Of a DNA stretch of 64,000 bases, positions 3,407 to 64,000 are shown in pieces. The notes beneath the pieces were generated by a model that was not told the DNA's origin, did no database searches, and was given only the letters and a program-made list of their open reading frames with translations. Each line of letters opens with the position of its first letter. The first letter of the stretch is position 1. This stretch comes from a virus. Lineage: Duplodnaviria; Caudoviricetes. Location: positions 1 to 64,000 of IMG/VR virus record IMGVR_UViG_3300046469_000011; one strand, 5' to 3'. Both the position numbers and the translations under genes were made by a program.

Positions 3407-4348
3407 ATGACGCAGCCCAAGTTCAAAGAGGGCCAAGTCAAGACGGGCAAGGACGGCAAGAAGTCGCGCATCCTCATCATGGACGTGATGGACATAAAGG
3501 GGCGCATCGAAAAAGTCGTGAGCGACGGCAAGGAGCGATCAACGTTCACGAGCCAGGAAGATCATGCGAGGCTGGATTACATCCGCCAGCATCCCGAGCA
3601 GAAGCTCGACAGCTTCTACGGAAAATTCAAGGATCAGGACGGCAAGACGAAAGACGCCACCGGGTTCGATCTGGCAAGCTGGGTGCGTAACGGATTTCGG
3701 TCCAAATCGTTCAACAGCATCGCCGAGCGGATGCCGATGGGCTTGCAGCATCGCCCGACTTGGAACGAGGAAGAGGGCGATATCGACGTAGGCAGGCTCT
3801 ACGGCGGCTTCGATGATTACATGATGGGTCCGGTTGAGCAGAAGGCCAAGCCTGGAATTCGTATCCAGTTTGGATTCTGTTTCTCGTGCGGAGTCTCAAA
3901 CGAAATCATCGCGGAGTACGGAGCGTTCATCATGGCGCTCATCGCGGGCATGGAATCCGAGGGGTTCGAATTGACCGTGGATGCGCTGATTGCTGTGCGT
4001 GATCCTTTCGTGGGAGAAAACGGAGTCACCAACAATCTGCTGGTGCGCGTCAAGCGAGCCGGTGAGGCGTCGGATTCTCTGAATTGGTCGGTGCTGTTCT
4101 CGCCGGTCGGATTCCGAGTGCTGGGATTTGAGGCAATCTGCATGGCCGGTGATCGGCTGGGAAAGGCGACGAATGGTCATCTGGGCTATCCGGCGACTGG
4201 TCACAAATGGGACCTGACCTACGACCACGAAACGTCCACGGTGACGATCATGTGCAATTCCAGCGCATATTCCGGAGAGCAGGTTCCGGCTGAGGCGTTG
4301 CTCAAAAAGGCCGTCGATGAGGGTCTGTTGCCCGAGCAGGACGTGTAA
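3407..4348 (+). CDS. probable degenerate vWA/CobT-like partner of the AAA+ ATPase
   Basis: Directly downstream of MoxR-type ATPase; EEGDIDVGRL and FSCGVS segments resemble phage vWA-like partners. Confidence 0.55.
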   Translation: MTQPKFKEGQVKTGKDGKKSRILIMDVMDIKGRIEKVVSDGKERSTFTSQEDHARLDYIRQHPEQKLDSFYGKFKDQDGKTKDATGFDLASWVRNGFRSKSFNSIAERMPMGLQHRPTWNEEEGDIDVGRLYGGFDDYMMGPVEQKAKPGIRIQFGFCFSCGVSNEIIAEYGAFIMALIAGMESEGFELTVDALIAVRDPFVGENGVTNNLLVRVKRAGEASDSLNWSVLFSPVGFRVLGFEAICMAGDRLGKATNGHLGYPATGHKWDLTYDHETSTVTIMCNSSAYSGEQVPAEALLKKAVDEGLLPEQDV

Positions 4349-4358
4349 AGGAGAAATA

Positions 4359-4478
4359 ATGCACACAAATAACCGAGTACGAAAGATGCGGACGCGGGTT
4401 GATTCAACGCGAACCGCAGCAGCCAAGATGCGGACCAAGACACGGAAAATGCAACGTCGCGCAAAAGGAGCAATCTGA
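4359..4478 (+). CDS. small basic protein (39 aa, MHTNNRVRKMR...)
   Basis: AAAGGAGAAATAATG start, TGATG overlap. Confidence 0.6.
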   Translation: MHTNNRVRKMRTRVDSTRTAAAKMRTKTRKMQRRAKGAI

Positions 4479-4708
4479 TGACGCTGGAAAAAATGTGGGA
4501 TGAGCTAATCGCTCTGGGCGTGAGCGAAGAAGCAATCCAAACGGTGGTCGATATCAACGGTTACAGCACAGGCACGATGGAGAGCATTCTGTTCGCCCGA
4601 ACGGGCTATCGGAATTTCGATCAGCTTGAGCCGGACGATGACGGCGAAGATGATGTTGTTGTCGAACTCCCCGGCGAGTCCCCCGATGCGTATTGGATGA
4701 ATCCATGA
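4478..4708 (+). CDS. hypothetical acidic protein
   Basis: AAAGGAG SD, coupled ORF. Confidence 0.7.
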   Translation: MTLEKMWDELIALGVSEEAIQTVVDINGYSTGTMESILFARTGYRNFDQLEPDDDGEDDVVVELPGESPDAYWMNP

Positions 4709-4992
4709 GAAGCAATCTGGTCGGAAAAACAGTCGCGCTGACGCTGTGCAAGGCGTGGGACGTGCGAGGCAATCAAACAGAGATTTCGGGACTATGGGAA
4801 GTCGAGGATTGGGATTGCATCGAGCGCGGAGGTCCATTCTTCATTCTGTACGACCCGAGTGGCCCGGACAGTGAGGAAAATTCCGTCACAGTCGATGAGT
4901 ACGACCTGATCGAACAAGTCGATCCTCACGCTTATGGGCGAATTCTCGAACAAGAGCGCATGATGGATTTCATGGAGGAAAGCAATGATTGA
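4705..4992 (+). CDS. hypothetical protein
   Basis: ATGA overlap with upstream ORF. Confidence 0.65.
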   Translation: MRSNLVGKTVALTLCKAWDVRGNQTEISGLWEVEDWDCIERGGPFFILYDPSGPDSEENSVTVDEYDLIEQVDPHAYGRILEQERMMDFMEESND

Positions 4993-5341
4993 AAACATCG
5001 GAACCATCTACGACTGCACCGAGGAACGCGAAATTCTGATCGGATCTCGCGTTGAGATGGAGTGGTTGGCCGAGGAAAATCTTCTGCCTCCGTACTCTGA
5101 GACAACGGCGAAGCTGATCCTGGAAAACACCGGGACAGTTATTCGAGTCACCGATCACGACGGCGATTACTCGGACGAGCTTGAAAGAGGCGTACACATC
5201 CCTCCGACAGTGATCGTGAAATTTGATGACGGGAGCGAAGGTCGCCTGAACACGCAATTCTGGGACATTCCCTACATGGCCGATCCCGACGAGGGCAAAG
5301 GCTATTGCGAGGATTTGCGAGTAATCGGAAAGGAGAACTAA
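4985..5341 (+). CDS. hypothetical protein
   Basis: GGAGG SD. Confidence 0.7.
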   Translation: MIENIGTIYDCTEEREILIGSRVEMEWLAEENLLPPYSETTAKLILENTGTVIRVTDHDGDYSDELERGVHIPPTVIVKFDDGSEGRLNTQFWDIPYMADPDEGKGYCEDLRVIGKEN

Positions 5342-5661
5342 TGACCTGGGACAGAGAAAGAGCGATGGACGAAATCGATCCACGCGACCTGTACGACGAC
5401 GACGAGAACGTTGAGTGCGAAACCTGCGGCTACAGGTGGCACTCAAGAATTATCCCGGCGAGCCGATATAGCCCGAGGGAGTATGTGGACGCCGATTGCC
5501 CGCGCTGTGAGCTTGGGCGAGTCCCGAACGAGACATACACCTACCGCGTGACCGTGGTGGCCCCTGTATCGCAGGAGGAAATGGAAAAGATTTGGGACCG
5601 GCTGATCAACTTCGGCGAGCAGGAACCATTCAAAATCGACTTCGAGGTGGAGCAAATATGA
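5341..5661 (+). CDS. hypothetical Zn-ribbon protein (CETC...CPRC)
   Basis: AAGGAG SD, TAATG overlap, two CxxC motifs. Confidence 0.7.
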   Translation: MTWDRERAMDEIDPRDLYDDDENVECETCGYRWHSRIIPASRYSPREYVDADCPRCELGRVPNETYTYRVTVVAPVSQEEMEKIWDRLINFGEQEPFKIDFEVEQI

Positions 5662-5825
5662 AACACTTTCAATTCGTAGGCGGCATAACGATGTGGGCCG
5701 AGAACGAGGAAGAGGCCCGAGCAGAAATCGAGGCCGCGCTTCGTATCGTCAATAAGTCGGGCGACGGCCCTACGGTCTGGATCGAGGACAACCCGGCAGA
5801 AATCATCGACGAGGATGAGTCGTGA
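5658..5825 (+). CDS. hypothetical protein
   Basis: GGAG SD, ATGA overlap. Confidence 0.6.
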   Translation: MKHFQFVGGITMWAENEEEARAEIEAALRIVNKSGDGPTVWIEDNPAEIIDEDES

Positions 5826-6106
5826 TCGAGGAAAAAGAAGCTCTCGAAAAGCAGATGAGTACCGACGAGTTCATCGGCGAAGTCATCGGAATTTTTCGGC
5901 TACTCGTCTTCAGCATCAGCATTTCGGAAGCTGATCCGGACGATGACGTGAGAATCCCTGAAGATGAGCGCGTCTATGCATTTGTGTCCGGCAGAACAGA
6001 GGATGAGACTGCGTATACCTACTGGTACTACGAAGCGCACAGCCGAACGATGGGCGGAGCATTGAGAAAAGTACGCGAAAAGATCCGCGAGCAACACGGA
6101 AAGTAA
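5822..6106 (+). CDS. hypothetical protein
   Basis: GTGA overlap. Confidence 0.65.
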   Translation: MIEEKEALEKQMSTDEFIGEVIGIFRLLVFSISISEADPDDDVRIPEDERVYAFVSGRTEDETAYTYWYYEAHSRTMGGALRKVREKIREQHGK

Positions 6107-7262: not shown

Positions 7263-7297
7263 CTAGCTACAACGTAACCCAAAGCAAAGGAGAAATA

Positions 7298-7459
7298 ATG
7301 CTACTCAGCACGTTTACCTACGAGCGCGACACCAAGAACAAGGTCCGCTTCACCGAAGATGGTGACGAGCCGGTGATCGGAACGCTCTACATGACCAAGC
7401 AGGCTTACAAGAGCTTGGGCGAGCCGAACAGCATCGTCGTCAAAATCGAGGCCGTGTAA
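7298..7459 (+). CDS. small conserved-looking phage protein (53 aa, FTYERDTKNKVRF...IGTLY)
   Basis: AAAGGAGAAATAATG start; TAATG overlap with Ku. Confidence 0.7.
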   Translation: MLLSTFTYERDTKNKVRFTEDGDEPVIGTLYMTKQAYKSLGEPNSIVVKIEAV

Positions 7460-16335: not shown

Positions 16336-16878
16336 TTGAAACGCCTGATTACAGCCAGCGTGGTATCGCTGGTCTTTGTTGTTCCCGCGACTGCCAATGC
16401 CAAACCCGTCAGTCGCCAGCACAGCCGCCAGTACGAGCGTCTGTATAAGCAGGTCGCCCAGAAATTTGGGAAACGTACTCCGGGACGAAATATCGTCAAG
16501 GACGGTACGAGAAAAGGTGCTGCGACTGATGCACAGGTCGTGGCGTCGATTGCTGAATTCGTAAAGTGGCTCACGCCGCCTCCTGTAGTTGCCCCGGCTC
16601 CGGTTTATTCGGCACCGGCAGGCACCTATTCCGCTCCTGTATCGACGAGCTATAGCGGTGGATATTCAATTCCGTCCAGCATCGTGCAATGCGAGTCGGG
16701 CGGAAATTGGAGCGCCGTGAATTCATCGTCAGGAGCAGGCGGGGCCTACCAAATTCTGCCCAGCACTTGGGCGGCATACGGTGGGACCGGCTCGCCGCAA
16801 GATGCGTCACCGGCTGAGCAGTCAGCTATCGCGTCAAGGATTTGGGCCAGCCAGGGGGCTAGCGCCTGGGTCTGCTGA
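16336..16878 (+). CDS. secreted Rpf-like (resuscitation-promoting factor) lytic transglycosylase
   Basis: Signal peptide ending ANA; IVQCESGGNW, GAGGAYQILPSTW, ASPAEQ, QGASAW. Confidence 0.85.
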   Translation: MKRLITASVVSLVFVVPATANAKPVSRQHSRQYERLYKQVAQKFGKRTPGRNIVKDGTRKGAATDAQVVASIAEFVKWLTPPPVVAPAPVYSAPAGTYSAPVSTSYSGGYSIPSSIVQCESGGNWSAVNSSSGAGGAYQILPSTWAAYGGTGSPQDASPAEQSAIASRIWASQGASAWVC

Positions 16879-61316: not shown

Positions 61317-61908
61317 TTTGAGTCAGTTGCTCCTGAATTGATTCGAGAACGATATTTCGCTGAACGGCAATCACGTCGCGCTCGACGATCTCCGCAAGCT
61401 CGTTCATAGCCTTGGTGAGAGTCTCATTCTCCTGATCTGAGAAATACTTCTCGCTGGTGCGATCCAGATCAACGAATGCGGTGATCTGAGCAGGACCAAC
61501 GGATACGTTCGCGTACTGGCCTGTGGGGATTAGCTCAGAAGCGGTCATGGTGATTTTTGCCAGAGGCTTGCCGCTGGCGTTGGTCGGCCAGGAAAGCTCA
61601 GCCGCATCGGTGTTATCCCGTGCCCGCTTCGCGGCGCTTTCGGCCTTGGCCCGACTCTGGACATCAGGAGTGGCAGCGGGCGGAACAGATGGGGACGCCT
61701 GGGGCTTCTCCTGGGCCTCGGCTTCGGGCTTTTCCACGGGCGGGGCAAAAACCCCCGGCTTCGGTCGAGGACGCGGAGCTTGAGGCACTTTCGATTCCCC
61801 CTCTGCTGGCAATTTGGTGGTCTTGTGTGTGTCGCAGCGCTTCGGCGGACGGCCTCGACCTGAATATTCCAGAGGCTTGCCGCAGATTTCGCAGTTGTAT
61901 TCGGCCAA
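61306..61908 (-). CDS. hypothetical protein with N-terminal Zn/GRPP motif
   Basis: CEICGK....GRGRPPKRC..H. Confidence 0.7.
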   Translation of the reverse strand: MAEYNCEICGKPLEYSGRGRPPKRCDTHKTTKLPAEGESKVPQAPRPRPKPGVFAPPVEKPEAEAQEKPQASPSVPPAATPDVQSRAKAESAAKRARDNTDAAELSWPTNASGKPLAKITMTASELIPTGQYANVSVGPAQITAFVDLDRTSEKYFSDQENETLTKAMNELAEIVERDVIAVQRNIVLESIQEQLTQNGN

Positions 61909-61909
61909 T

Positions 61910-62251
61910 TTAGATCTCTTCCAGTCTTGATCGCTTTATGCTGTGTGGTCGGCGCATTTTTTCGATGGCCTTTTCGAGTTCCTTCTCGGTTGGGTTCCAG
62001 TGAACCAGACCCTTGCCTGAGCGTCGATCTGTCTTTCGCATCCACTCCCTGATGCCCTCGATCTGCTCGGGCGTCCAGTAGCGCCAGTTGGAGCGCCCCC
62101 GCTCCGACCGCAGATGCTCAGGCAGCACCTTGTCTTGCTCCCACTTGCGGATCGTCCCAATCCGGCGATTGAGCATCTGTGCCGCCTCCCGTATGTAGAT
62201 GCGTCCTGCCTCGACTTCTGGCATGAATGCGATCATAGCACCAAAGATCAC
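61910..62251 (-). CDS. MerR-like HTH protein
   Basis: IREAAQMLNRRIGTIRKWEQ...R...WRYWT. Confidence 0.8.
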   Translation of the reverse strand: MIFGAMIAFMPEVEAGRIYIREAAQMLNRRIGTIRKWEQDKVLPEHLRSERGRSNWRYWTPEQIEGIREWMRKTDRRSGKGLVHWNPTEKELEKAIEKMRRPHSIKRSRLEEI

Positions 62252-62265
62252 AGGTGTCCAAGAAC

Positions 62266-62296
62266 AAGAAAACCCCGCTATTTGCGGGGCTTTCTC
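62266..62296 (-). terminator. intrinsic terminator (possibly bidirectional)
   Basis: GAAAACCCCGC-TATTT-GCGGGGCTTTC hairpin. Confidence 0.7.
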
Positions 62297-62304
62297 TGAA
62301 CCAC

Positions 62305-62333
62305 TTGACGGCCTGGTGGACGCCGACTAGGGT
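62305..62333 (+). promoter_or_regulatory. sigmaA-type promoter firing against the replication block
   Basis: TTGACG-N17-TAGGGT. Confidence 0.6.
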
Positions 62334-62339
62334 TCTGAA

Positions 62340-62710
62340 TCACCGAGAGATCCACGCACAGCCTAACACATAGCGGCTATATGTCTAGTGCGGTACAAAG
62401 CCCTGTAGTTAGAACCTAGCTACAGAAGAGAGGCCAAGTGACTGACGGCCCTGGGTGCTACAGCCAAAGCCCTTCTGCTGGGAGGGAGTCGCCGCTATGA
62501 ATTCCCAGATCCACATGCCCCGTCGCAGTCGCGCAAGCGAGGGCGGGCGCAGACGAGTGAGAAGCGAAAGCTCTCCGGACGATAAAGCTGCACCTGGGCG
62601 TCCTTTCGTCTGCGCGGTGAATAATCACCTGGGCGACGTTCCCGGAGAACTTCGACCCATCGCTTTCCCGGCAAGGGGGCGGTGGGTTCAGTAGCCCAAA
62701 GAGGGGAGAG
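62340..62710 (+). ncRNA. candidate structured non-coding RNA (ends approximate)
   Basis: Downstream of promoter; nested stems, GNRA tetraloops; no convincing CDS. Confidence 0.5.
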
Positions 62711-62712
62711 GG

Positions 62713-63129
62713 TTATGGTTTCAGCGCTTCGCGAATGGCTCGTCGGCAAAGTCCGTCAGCTTCTACGTTTTGCTCTCGCGGAATCCACTGGATTGAAACC
62801 GAGCGAAACCGGCTGGCTTCTTCCCACACCTGATCTCGAAGTTTCTGAAGTTCCCGGTTGCGGCAAGTCCATTCCTCCCGAAGCTGATGAACAATCAGTT
62901 TGGAATCCGAGAAAATTTCGAGATCCGTCGCGCCGATCTCTGCCGCGAGGCGAACTGCCAGCAAAGCGCCGTTGTATTCGCCGACATTATTCGTCGTATG
63001 AGGCGGAAGTAGCTTTGTTTTCTCGAAGTATTCGTTATTCGAGCGCAAAACACACGCTGCCGCCTGAATGCGGGATGAATTTCCGCTACCGTCGATATAT
63101 GCCGTAGCGAATACCCTATTCGCCGACAT
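62713..63129 (-). CDS. rnhA: ribonuclease HI
   Basis: YIDGS, TNNVGEY, SDSKLI..Q, WIPREQNVEAD. Confidence 0.9.
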   Translation of the reverse strand: MSANRVFATAYIDGSGNSSRIQAAACVLRSNNEYFEKTKLLPPHTTNNVGEYNGALLAVRLAAEIGATDLEIFSDSKLIVHQLREEWTCRNRELQKLRDQVWEEASRFRSVSIQWIPREQNVEADGLCRRAIREALKP

Positions 63130-64000
63130 AGTTGAGGATATCTCGGCGATTTACGTCGAATATCTCGTAGCCATGCGCGGCGTAGACCCTATTTCGGCGC
63201 ACATGCCATTGGGCGTTCAGAGGTTCGCAGTCGATGTCGTGGAAATCGAACACACGAGCTTCGTCTTTATCGTGGTGGAACCTCGAAACGCGGCCAACCT
63301 GCTGCTCAATTAGACCGGGATTGCGCTGCGGGAAGGCCAAAAACAGTCTGTCGAGGCGGCGAATGTCGAGAGCTTCGTCAGCCAGAGTCGAAAGAATGCA
63401 GCATGGCTCGGAATTCGCGTATTCGACAACCCGATTACGCTCTTCTGACGATTCTTTTCCAGTAATCCTGTGAATCGGATACTGATATTCGTTTTCTTCA
63501 AGCAAAGCCTGAATATTGTCCAAATGTTCAAGGCGCTTTGAGAGTACGAGCGTGTGAGTGCCTTCTTCGATCAAGATCGATTTGGCAATGAGCCAGTTAC
63601 GTTCTTCGTCATTGGTCAAAGCCTGGATCATCTTTCCGTAATTTGATGGCCTTCTGCCGCTAGCAGGCCGAAACGGATACCTGAACGTCGTGGGGATGCG
63701 GTAGATGATCGGCTTGATGATGTTATGGACCTCTTCACGCCTCGTCTCGTAGACGATGGGTCCGAGAACTGCCTGCGCCAGAGCGAAATCGCCGGTCTTG
63801 TCAGGCGTAGCACTTACTCCTATACGCCATGTGGAACTAAACCTATCTACAAGTCTATTGTATGTAGATGCTGTAGCATGATGGCATTCATCTAGACACA
63901 TAAATCCAAATGAATCGAAGAACCCAAGGTTTTCTAGCTCTTCGTATCTATTGTTCAACGTCTGAACTGTAGCTATATTTAGATGTTTAGTAGTGGCGAA
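63116..64000 (-). CDS. SF2 (DExH, ResIII/UvsW-like) helicase, 5' end outside the window
   Basis: IATVQTL, LDECHH, GVSATPD, QQVGRV; frame open to the window edge. Confidence 0.9.
   Translation of the reverse strand, partial: FATTKHLNIATVQTLNNRYEELENLGFFDSFGFMCLDECHHATASTYNRLVDRFSSTWRIGVSATPDKTGDFALAQAVLGPIVYETRREEVHNIIKPIIYRIPTTFRYPFRPASGRRPSNYGKMIQALTNDEERNWLIAKSILIEEGTHTLVLSKRLEHLDNIQALLEENEYQYPIHRITGKESSEERNRVVEYANSEPCCILSTLADEALDIRRLDRLFLAFPQRNPGLIEQQVGRVSRFHHDKDEARVFDFHDIDCEPLNAQWHVRRNRVYAAHGYEIFDVNRRDILNYVGE

Follow-up and report, generated by a model that had tools for sequence, protein, structure and literature searches.

The largest gene-free gap in the replication block of an uncultivated phage encodes a real structured RNA, located on the + strand and belonging to a catalogued family, EGFOA (Rfam RF02955). 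The RNA is non-coding, it has the fold of the family, and its relatives in other phages and mobile elements share no fixed neighbor. The reading that we favor, with a probability of roughly 0.6, is that of a stand-alone EGFOA-class RNA gene, the product of which is a self-contained folded RNA that acts in trans rather than in cis on the genes for RNase H, the helicase or DnaB. The family was already known; what is new is a copy with individual traits, which is modest as a discovery. EGFOA is an orphan family, with oligomeric structures solved, and the copy described here adds a datable context, namely, a probably lytic phage in which the apparent own promoter of the RNA faces an otherwise one-directional genome.

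A full-length EGFOA match in a gap of the replication block

The window, that is, the whole stretch of DNA that was analyzed (64,000 nucleotides), is part of a 91,877-bp linear IMG/VR virus record (IMGVR_UViG_3300046469_000011) judged to be ~90% complete. Beyond ~17 kb, almost all genes of the record lie on the - strand. The gap at 62252-62712, 461 nt free of genes, is the largest within the replication block, as had been noticed originally, though not genome-wide. It is flanked on one side by an RNase H-like gene that follows an SF2 helicase and on the other side by a small MerR-type HTH gene, and the EGFOA RNA is antisense to every surrounding gene.

The match to the EGFOA model occupies 62499-62615, on the + strand only, spans model positions 1-108 of 108, and scores 59.7 bits against a gathering cut-off of 37.7 (E = 1e-9 in a scan of 61500-63500 and 3.3e-8 in the whole window). 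EGFOA is the sole Rfam family above its curated cut-off in the 64-kb window and is present in a single copy in the record. Thus, the original prediction was right in placing a structured non-coding RNA on the + strand but wrong in calling it unclassified: the cmscan search, where the lack of a hit would have spoken for novelty, yielded one match above the cut-off. All the elements that had been named (promoter, hairpins, helices and the repeat CACCTGGGCG) are found where they had been placed, and the hairpins are EGFOA helices, with TCGC-GCAA-GCGA as the first hairpin, GCGCAGACGA/TCGTCTGCGC as the closing helix, and GAGAAGC-GAAA-GCTCTC and GGACG/CGTCC as the two inner hairpins. A blastn search of the gap against GenBank phages gave no match, and the folding energy is mildly unusual without telling the strands apart (z -2.3 for the + strand and -2.1 for the - strand).

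The family is attributed to Weinberg et al. 2017 in a preprint (bioRxiv 10.64898/2026.07.01.735769); it is not named in the main text of the former paper (PMC5737381). According to the preprint, cryo-EM of two EGFOA members revealed homo-oligomers, either open trimers or dimers. The features of the gap and its flanks are as follows.

62273..62289, - strand: hairpin CCCCGC-TATTT-GCGGGG, bordering the unit on its left, followed by TTTTCTTGTTCTT on the - strand, read from the sequence
62305..62333, + strand: promoter-like TTGACG-N17-TAGGGT (TTGACG 62305-62310, TAGGGT 62328-62333)
62341..62476, + strand: putative leader, with a 29-nt block shared with a sister phage (62346-62374) and the hairpin CTGTAG..CTACAG (62403-62425)
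62455..62694, + strand: 79-codon open frame with a GTG start that crosses the RNA; judged to be no gene
62477..62490, + strand: GCTGGGAGGGAGTC, which aligns with the 5' box of the relatives (GTTAGAGG / CAGAGGGAG type), located 15-25 nt upstream of CCCAGA
62499..62615, + strand: EGFOA core, by Rfam RF02955, helix complementarity and covariation
62504-62508 with 62594-62598, + strand: PK1, long-range pairing of CCCAG with CTGGG in the core
62520-62524, + strand: CCGTC, conserved block of the core
62525-62528 with 62588-62591, + strand: PK2, long-range pairing of GCAG with CTGC in the core
62529-62540, + strand: P1, core hairpin TCGC-GCAA-GCGA
62547-62556 with 62606-62615, + strand: closing helix GCGCAGACGA with TCGTCTGCGC, perfectly paired
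62559-62575, + strand: P3, GAGAAGC-GAAA-GCTCTC, with one bulged A
62577-62581 with 62599-62603, + strand: P4, GGACG with CGTCC, fully paired
62582-62598, + strand: ATAAAGCTGCACCTGGG, the block (G)UAAAGCU-NN-ACCUGGG, with A for G before UAAAGCU as the sole departure
62616..62654, + strand: 3' linker, with the hairpin GGTGA-ATAA-TCACC (62616-62629), CACCTGGGCG (62626-62635) and CCGGAGAACTT (62642-62652)
62655..62687, + strand: 3' hairpin ACCCATCGC..CCC-GGCAA-GGGGGCGGTGGGT, RNAfold -24 kcal/mol, aligned by MAFFT to the hairpin of the relatives
62713-63129, - strand: RNase H-like gene (Pfam RVT_3 and RNase_H), one flank of the gap, following the SF2 helicase
Other flank of the gap, - strand: small MerR-type HTH gene, then two unknown genes, DnaB, a DNA methylase and a primase

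Compensated pairings and an extended conserved unit

Relatives were gathered with a sequence pattern built from the conserved blocks, which matched 18 viral contigs and 47 bacterial-genome contigs, ~41 of the latter being real. Chance matches that lacked CCCAG and the pairings were dropped by eye (L125 among the viral contigs; L126, L132, L136, L159 and L166 among the genomes). A shorter 14-base pattern matched mostly by chance, with ~9 real cases among 115 matches, and longer patterns were used instead. The Rfam cut-off was passed by 14 of the 16 sampled relative loci. These relatives are carried by phages and mobile islands, among others of Bacillota and Thermoleophilia, and the bacterial sources include Paenibacillus, Brevibacillus, Lysinibacillus, Solirubrobacterales and other Thermoleophilia.

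Covariation, which had been proposed as a check of the RNA, is seen among the relatives. In 49 distinct relatives, the PK2-type helix, NNAG:CUNN, formed by the four bases after CCGUC and the four after UAAAG, is paired in 49 of 49 sequences with six arm combinations, compared to 90% with shuffled partners, and P4 is paired in 93% compared to 64% with shuffled partners. The third pairing, CCCAG:CUGGG, can always form in these 49 relatives but is nearly invariant and so carries no covariation signal. Both long-range pairings were deduced here and not taken from the Rfam annotation. In the cmscan alignment, all consensus helices of the window's copy are paired, with one non-standard pair flagged in P3. 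Because this copy obeys all the pairing rules of its relatives, with a P4 pair (GGACG/CGTCC) that is unique and compensated, we consider it a genuine + strand member of the family.

The window's copy shares with the relatives the conserved blocks CCCAG, CCGUC and UAAAGCUNNACCUGGG, the same helices together with both long-range pairings, and a position within a large gap devoid of genes in phage or mobile-element DNA. It differs from them, apart from P4, in the A that replaces G ahead of UAAAGCU, in the ~135-nt leader that would run from a promoter common to a sister phage, and in its position antisense to all neighbors within a phage record where no integrase was found. Further differences concern the sequence outside the core. 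Thermoleophilia and two groups of Bacillota share one arrangement, in which a 5' hairpin box precedes the core, and the core is followed by a GGAU(A/U)CCUCA box, by a hairpin tipped by a C-run and a G-run, and by a GUUKUCCUCGAA box. Judged by this order, the Rfam model is the center only of the conserved unit, and the natural unit is longer. The window's copy has a 5' box with weak similarity to that of the relatives and no clear hairpin, as well as a clear counterpart of the 3' hairpin, but lacks both CCUC boxes that are common to relatives of two phyla: where these have the GGAU(A/U)CCUCA box, it carries a second copy of CACCTGGGCG, and the GUUKUCCUCGAA box is missing altogether. This copy may be a trimmed variant or a functionally different one.

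A C-run/G-run hairpin was found at the same relative place in single-sequence folds of all 26 relatives tested. When the 3' domain was aligned with MAFFT and folded with RNAalifold, the arms were out of register and no usable consensus emerged. The direct repeat of CACCTGGGCG (at 62591 and 62626) extends to 15 nt at 87% identity. The 11 nt of CCGGAGAACTT (62642-62652) are complementary to the 3' arm of P3 (62568-62578), which would be compatible with strand exchange but proves nothing. A pairing of the 5' box with the 3' box that would close the whole unit was assessed with RNAduplex against shuffled 3' segments (z ~0) and is rejected for now.

Putative promoter, predicted ends of the transcript and sister phages

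On the + strand of the 461-nt gap, TAGGGT is the sole TANNNT, and the 64-kb window, both strands counted, has only five instances of the full pattern TTGACN-N16-18-TANNNT. A sigma-70 scan did not list the + strand TTGACG/TAGGGT promoter because TAGGGT matches TATAAT at only 3 of 6 positions.

Two sister phages were found in IMG/VR and two in metagenomes, too few for close-range covariation of the leader. One of these (L173) has a helicase with 61% identity and matches the window in its gene order, helicase-RNase H-gap-HTH-DnaB. The syntenic gap of L173 (L173:5305-5710, the - strand of that locus corresponding to the + strand of the window) retains the TAGGGT -10 element and, ~13 nt downstream of it, the 29-nt leader block (86% identity, E 2e-4). 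The remaining ~330 nt of this gap are unrelated non-coding sequence that closes with a GCCCGC..GCGGGC hairpin; the gap contains no EGFOA, and no Rfam family was matched in it. In another sister phage (L174), three tRNA genes (5262-5343, 5766-5841 and 7284-7357) lie just past the helicase, where the window has RNase H and EGFOA. With a different non-coding stretch in L173 and tRNA genes in L174, the comparison of the sister loci identifies the gap slot as a changeable site for RNA genes.

The lone TANNNT, the rarity of the full pattern and the conservation of the -10 element and the leader block in L173 support a promoter-driven + strand RNA of ~350 nt. The promoter and the length near 350 nt, from the promoter to the 3' hairpin at 62655-62687, both of which belonged to the original prediction, are therefore plausible. 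TTGACG-N17-TAGGGT probably drives the RNA, with a transcript start that we place near 62340, and the putative leader at 62341-62476 may be part of the mature RNA; a leader arm (62369-62377) is perfectly complementary to 62491-62499, directly ahead of the core. The 3' hairpin at 62655-62687, 26 nt from the RNase H stop codon, is probably the RNA 3' end or a terminator, and may act both ways, that is, against the converging RNase H operon, too. The RNA would then be independently transcribed and ~0.2-0.36 kb long, with the start, end, expressed strand and processing all deduced from sequence features.

The hairpin at 62273-62289 lies outside the RNA and looks like a - strand terminator that insulates the next - strand gene; the terminator scan listed it on the + strand, with a weaker tail, CTTTCTCTGA. 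Upstream of that next gene, the MerR-like one, a - strand promoter, TGGACA-17-TATGAT, with a TG ahead of its -10 element, lies 7 nt from ATG 62224 (62260-62224), so that the mRNA of the gene looks leaderless, in which case the listed GTG start at 62251 would be wrong. The promoter of this leaderless type and an Rpf-type transglycosylase domain (PF06737, E 5e-19), found in a stand-alone + strand gene at 16336-16878, point to an actinobacterium as the probable host; this host fits the MAFFT alignment, in which the core of the window's copy is closest to the Thermoleophilia type. Neither a serine or tyrosine recombinase nor a tRNA gene was found in the record.

Genomic neighbors of the relatives

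The flanks of ~47 non-redundant relatives contain no fixed partner gene. The commonest neighbor is a large serine recombinase that diverges ~500 nt upstream of EGFOA in nine Bacillota loci. Others are tyrosine integrases, excisionase-type HTH proteins, IS110 transposases, terminase subunits, an endolysin accompanied by an unknown gene, and ordinary host genes, for example, an RlmD-type methyltransferase. DNA polymerase III alpha lies just downstream of EGFOA in one phage lineage (L052, L067 and L121), and genes for a replication initiator, a DnaD-like protein or ParA occur close to a few relatives. The 25 families most often met on each side of the relatives include neither RNase_H nor RVT_3. 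The loci divide about evenly between those in which the gene downstream of EGFOA is co-directional with it and those in which this gene runs the opposite way. Together with the window's copy, the relatives show that the family is found both in phages and in integrase islands, and in Bacillota and Thermoleophilia at the least.

In four loci from three genera (L129, L141, L150 and L170), the serine recombinase beside EGFOA is shortened to ~180-260 residues, with an IS110-family transposase directly after it on the same strand (for example, L150:2910-4250 and 4343-5125), which suggests recurrent insertion into the recombinase gene. In Thermoleophilia genomes, EGFOA is preceded at a distance of 0.2-0.7 kb by tRNA genes or a tRNA fragment (L140:1986-2059, L161:7405-7477, and L163 near 3325), an arrangement typical of the edges of integrated elements.

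Possible functions of the RNA

The lack of a fixed protein neighbor and the longer natural unit narrow the hypotheses towards a self-sufficient, trans-acting RNA. In such a scheme, transcription from TTGACG-N17-TAGGGT on the + strand would oppose a ~75-kb array of - strand genes and would yield a transcript of ~0.35 kb composed of the ~135-nt leader, the double-pseudoknot core (62499-62615), a short 3' linker and an end at the 62655-62687 hairpin; if the leader were removed or a nearer start used, an RNA of ~0.2 kb would result. The folded, possibly oligomeric particle could then bind or sequester some host or phage factor during infection. The conserved compact pseudoknot, the apparent own promoter and 3' hairpin, and the variability of neighbors and their orientation all argue for a self-contained RNA of this kind, a trans-acting decoy or scaffold being the default reading rather than a demonstrated mechanism.

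Some features of the gap are also those of a boundary between operons. The hairpins at 62273-62289 and 62655-62687, together with convergent transcription, could serve mainly to terminate the helicase-RNase H operon or insulate it against the MerR-like/DnaB operon, or the antisense RNA could damp RNase H and helicase. Consistent with this possibility, the RNA faces the 3' end of RNase H, the 3' hairpin next to the stop codon of that gene is palindromic enough for both strands, the left hairpin has a T-run on the - strand that is followed at once by the - strand promoter, and about half of the relatives have their downstream gene on the other strand. However, the other half have a co-directional downstream gene, often 200-800 nt off, a pseudoknotted core conserved across phyla would be needless for this purpose, and no missing terminator forces such a role. 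Hence, we regard a cis boundary element as unlikely.

A low probability attaches also to a base-pairing sRNA, in which the core would stabilize or scaffold the molecule and single-stranded, C-rich 3' boxes would pair with mRNAs, for example, at Shine-Dalgarno regions. Two near-identical boxes, R1 and R2, do flank the 3' hairpin in three lineages and are lineage-specific, both boxes of the relatives begin with CCUC, which is anti-Shine-Dalgarno-like, and the window's copy has TTCCCGG at 62640 and 62666. Nevertheless, no site complementary to the boxes was found within the 8-kb loci, the second box lies past the probable terminator hairpin and may go untranscribed, and the CCUC boxes are missing from the window's copy.

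The R1/R2 boxes admit a further reading. Their types are CTTCACACAG twice, CCTC..ATTAG twice and CCC..TCGATGG twice, in the loci L127 (5734 and 5790), L153 (1481 and 1536) and L140 (1294 and 1223) and their groups. Because R1 and R2 are alike within each of the three lineages and diverge between lineages, they might be a pair of sites at which a nucleic acid or protein partner from the mobile element recognizes the RNA. The 108-position motif would then be the middle of a ~250-450-nt RNA, EGFOA would serve phages and recombinase islands as a programmable RNA of a guide-like or addressing kind, and the window's copy, which carries both CACCTGGGCG and TTCCCGG twice, would be a re-addressed variant. 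If so, EGFOA would not be a passive scaffold; we hold this reading to be quite improbable.

It is equally doubtful that the RNA is riboswitch-like or self-cleaving, with the invariant junction nucleotides CCGUC and GUAAAGCU lining a ligand pocket or an active site and an expression platform provided by the 3' hairpin. The unpaired nucleotides of the pseudoknotted core are strongly conserved, a terminator-type hairpin lies at a fixed distance downstream, and segments of the 3' linker can pair alternatively with core strands. Against this mechanism, there is no consistent downstream gene or orientation, Rfam types EGFOA as an sRNA gene, and the oligomers are described as ligand-free, with cleavage not reported, in the available part of the preprint (bioRxiv 10.64898/2026.07.01.735769).

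The original prediction suggested an R-loop primer: the + strand transcript would remain hybridized to the template, and cleavage by the neighboring RNase H would leave an end from which the leading strand is primed. This idea was founded only on the neighboring RNase H and helicase genes, a context that is not kept among the relatives. The RNA does lie within a replication module, beside RNase H, SF2 helicase, DnaB and primase genes, and the 3' part contains a G5 run (62675-62679) and a 15-nt all-purine tract, AAAGAGGGGAGAGGG (62698-62712); the G5 run is one arm of the conserved 3' hairpin. The lineage with DNA polymerase III alpha and the few relatives near initiator, DnaD-like or ParA genes can be added on the same side. 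However, RNase H is not a recurrent neighbor of the ~47 relatives, many copies of EGFOA adjoin terminases, integrases and ordinary host genes, and sister phages with the same gene order have no EGFOA in the slot. In the GC-skew check proposed for an origin, the cumulative skew has its maximum at ~23 kb and its minimum at ~89 kb, with no extremum at 62 kb, although skew in this genome follows gene orientation. Neither iterons nor an AT-rich unwinding element were found in the gap, its repeats being short two-copy matches, and the double pseudoknot, compact and covarying, suggests a free folded RNA, which makes a replication primer highly improbable.

That the stretch instead encodes the 79-residue protein of the open frame at 62455..62694, which does have a GTG start and which the original prediction had set against an RNA, has almost no probability: the frame matches no Pfam family; it and the - strand frames at 62495-62749 and 62458-62628 gave no tblastn match below E 0.04 in ~175 loci, ~50 of them with homologous EGFOA DNA; the frames that overlap the core in the relatives vary in strand or are missing; and the peptide is Arg/Pro/Gly-rich, as expected from translated G+C-rich DNA (63% G+C in this stretch).

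Comparison with other structured RNAs

GOLLD and ROOL are large, ornate RNAs of prophages and Lactobacillales (Weinberg et al. 2017, PMC5737381), and the abstract of a cryo-EM preprint calls both RNA-only complexes, homo-oligomers not being mentioned there (bioRxiv 10.1101/2024.12.08.627333). EGFOA differs from them in that it forms open trimers or dimers, not cages, according to the EGFOA preprint cited above. Like EGFOA, GOLLD and ROOL are phage- or prophage-borne structured RNAs, often near tRNA genes, as the EGFOA slot is filled by tRNAs in L174 and EGFOA has tRNAs at a distance of 0.5-0.7 kb in L140 and L161. However, the two kinds share no sequence or model similarity, given that no Rfam family except EGFOA was matched, and EGFOA is far smaller, with a core of ~110 nt.

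ColE1 RNA II and the transcripts of T4 oriF and oriG are promoter-driven, structured RNAs that prime replication as R-loops. The RNA in the window resembles these in its putative promoter, its structure, its proximity to replication and RNase H genes and its G- and purine-rich 3' part. Unlike them, it belongs to a family in which the relatives have no conserved link to replication genes or RNase H, and the compact pseudoknot is kept across phyla in non-replicative contexts; furthermore, the locus lacks a skew turning point, and no antisense regulator was identified here.

Additional repeats and downstream motifs

Many copies of EGFOA are accompanied by GAA-loop hairpins and a recurring GAGCGAAGCGAAC-like string downstream (in L142, L144, L153, L154, L167-L169 and L171, ~120-200 nt after the core, and also in L014, L124, L029, L137 and L146). 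These may be the published "EGFOA-associated" motifs; none of the EGFOA-associated Rfam families reached the gathering score in the loci of 16 relatives, and neither the hairpins nor the strings were found in the window.

Two further repeats connect parts of the putative transcription unit. The -35 region, TGACGGCC(C)TGG(G)TG (62306-62320), is repeated 137 nt downstream (62443-62459), where Thermoleophilia relatives carry GGTGACGGC, and the leader sequence AGATCCAC (62348-62355) recurs immediately 3' of the core CCCAG (62507-62514). These repeats may record a duplication or a second start site.
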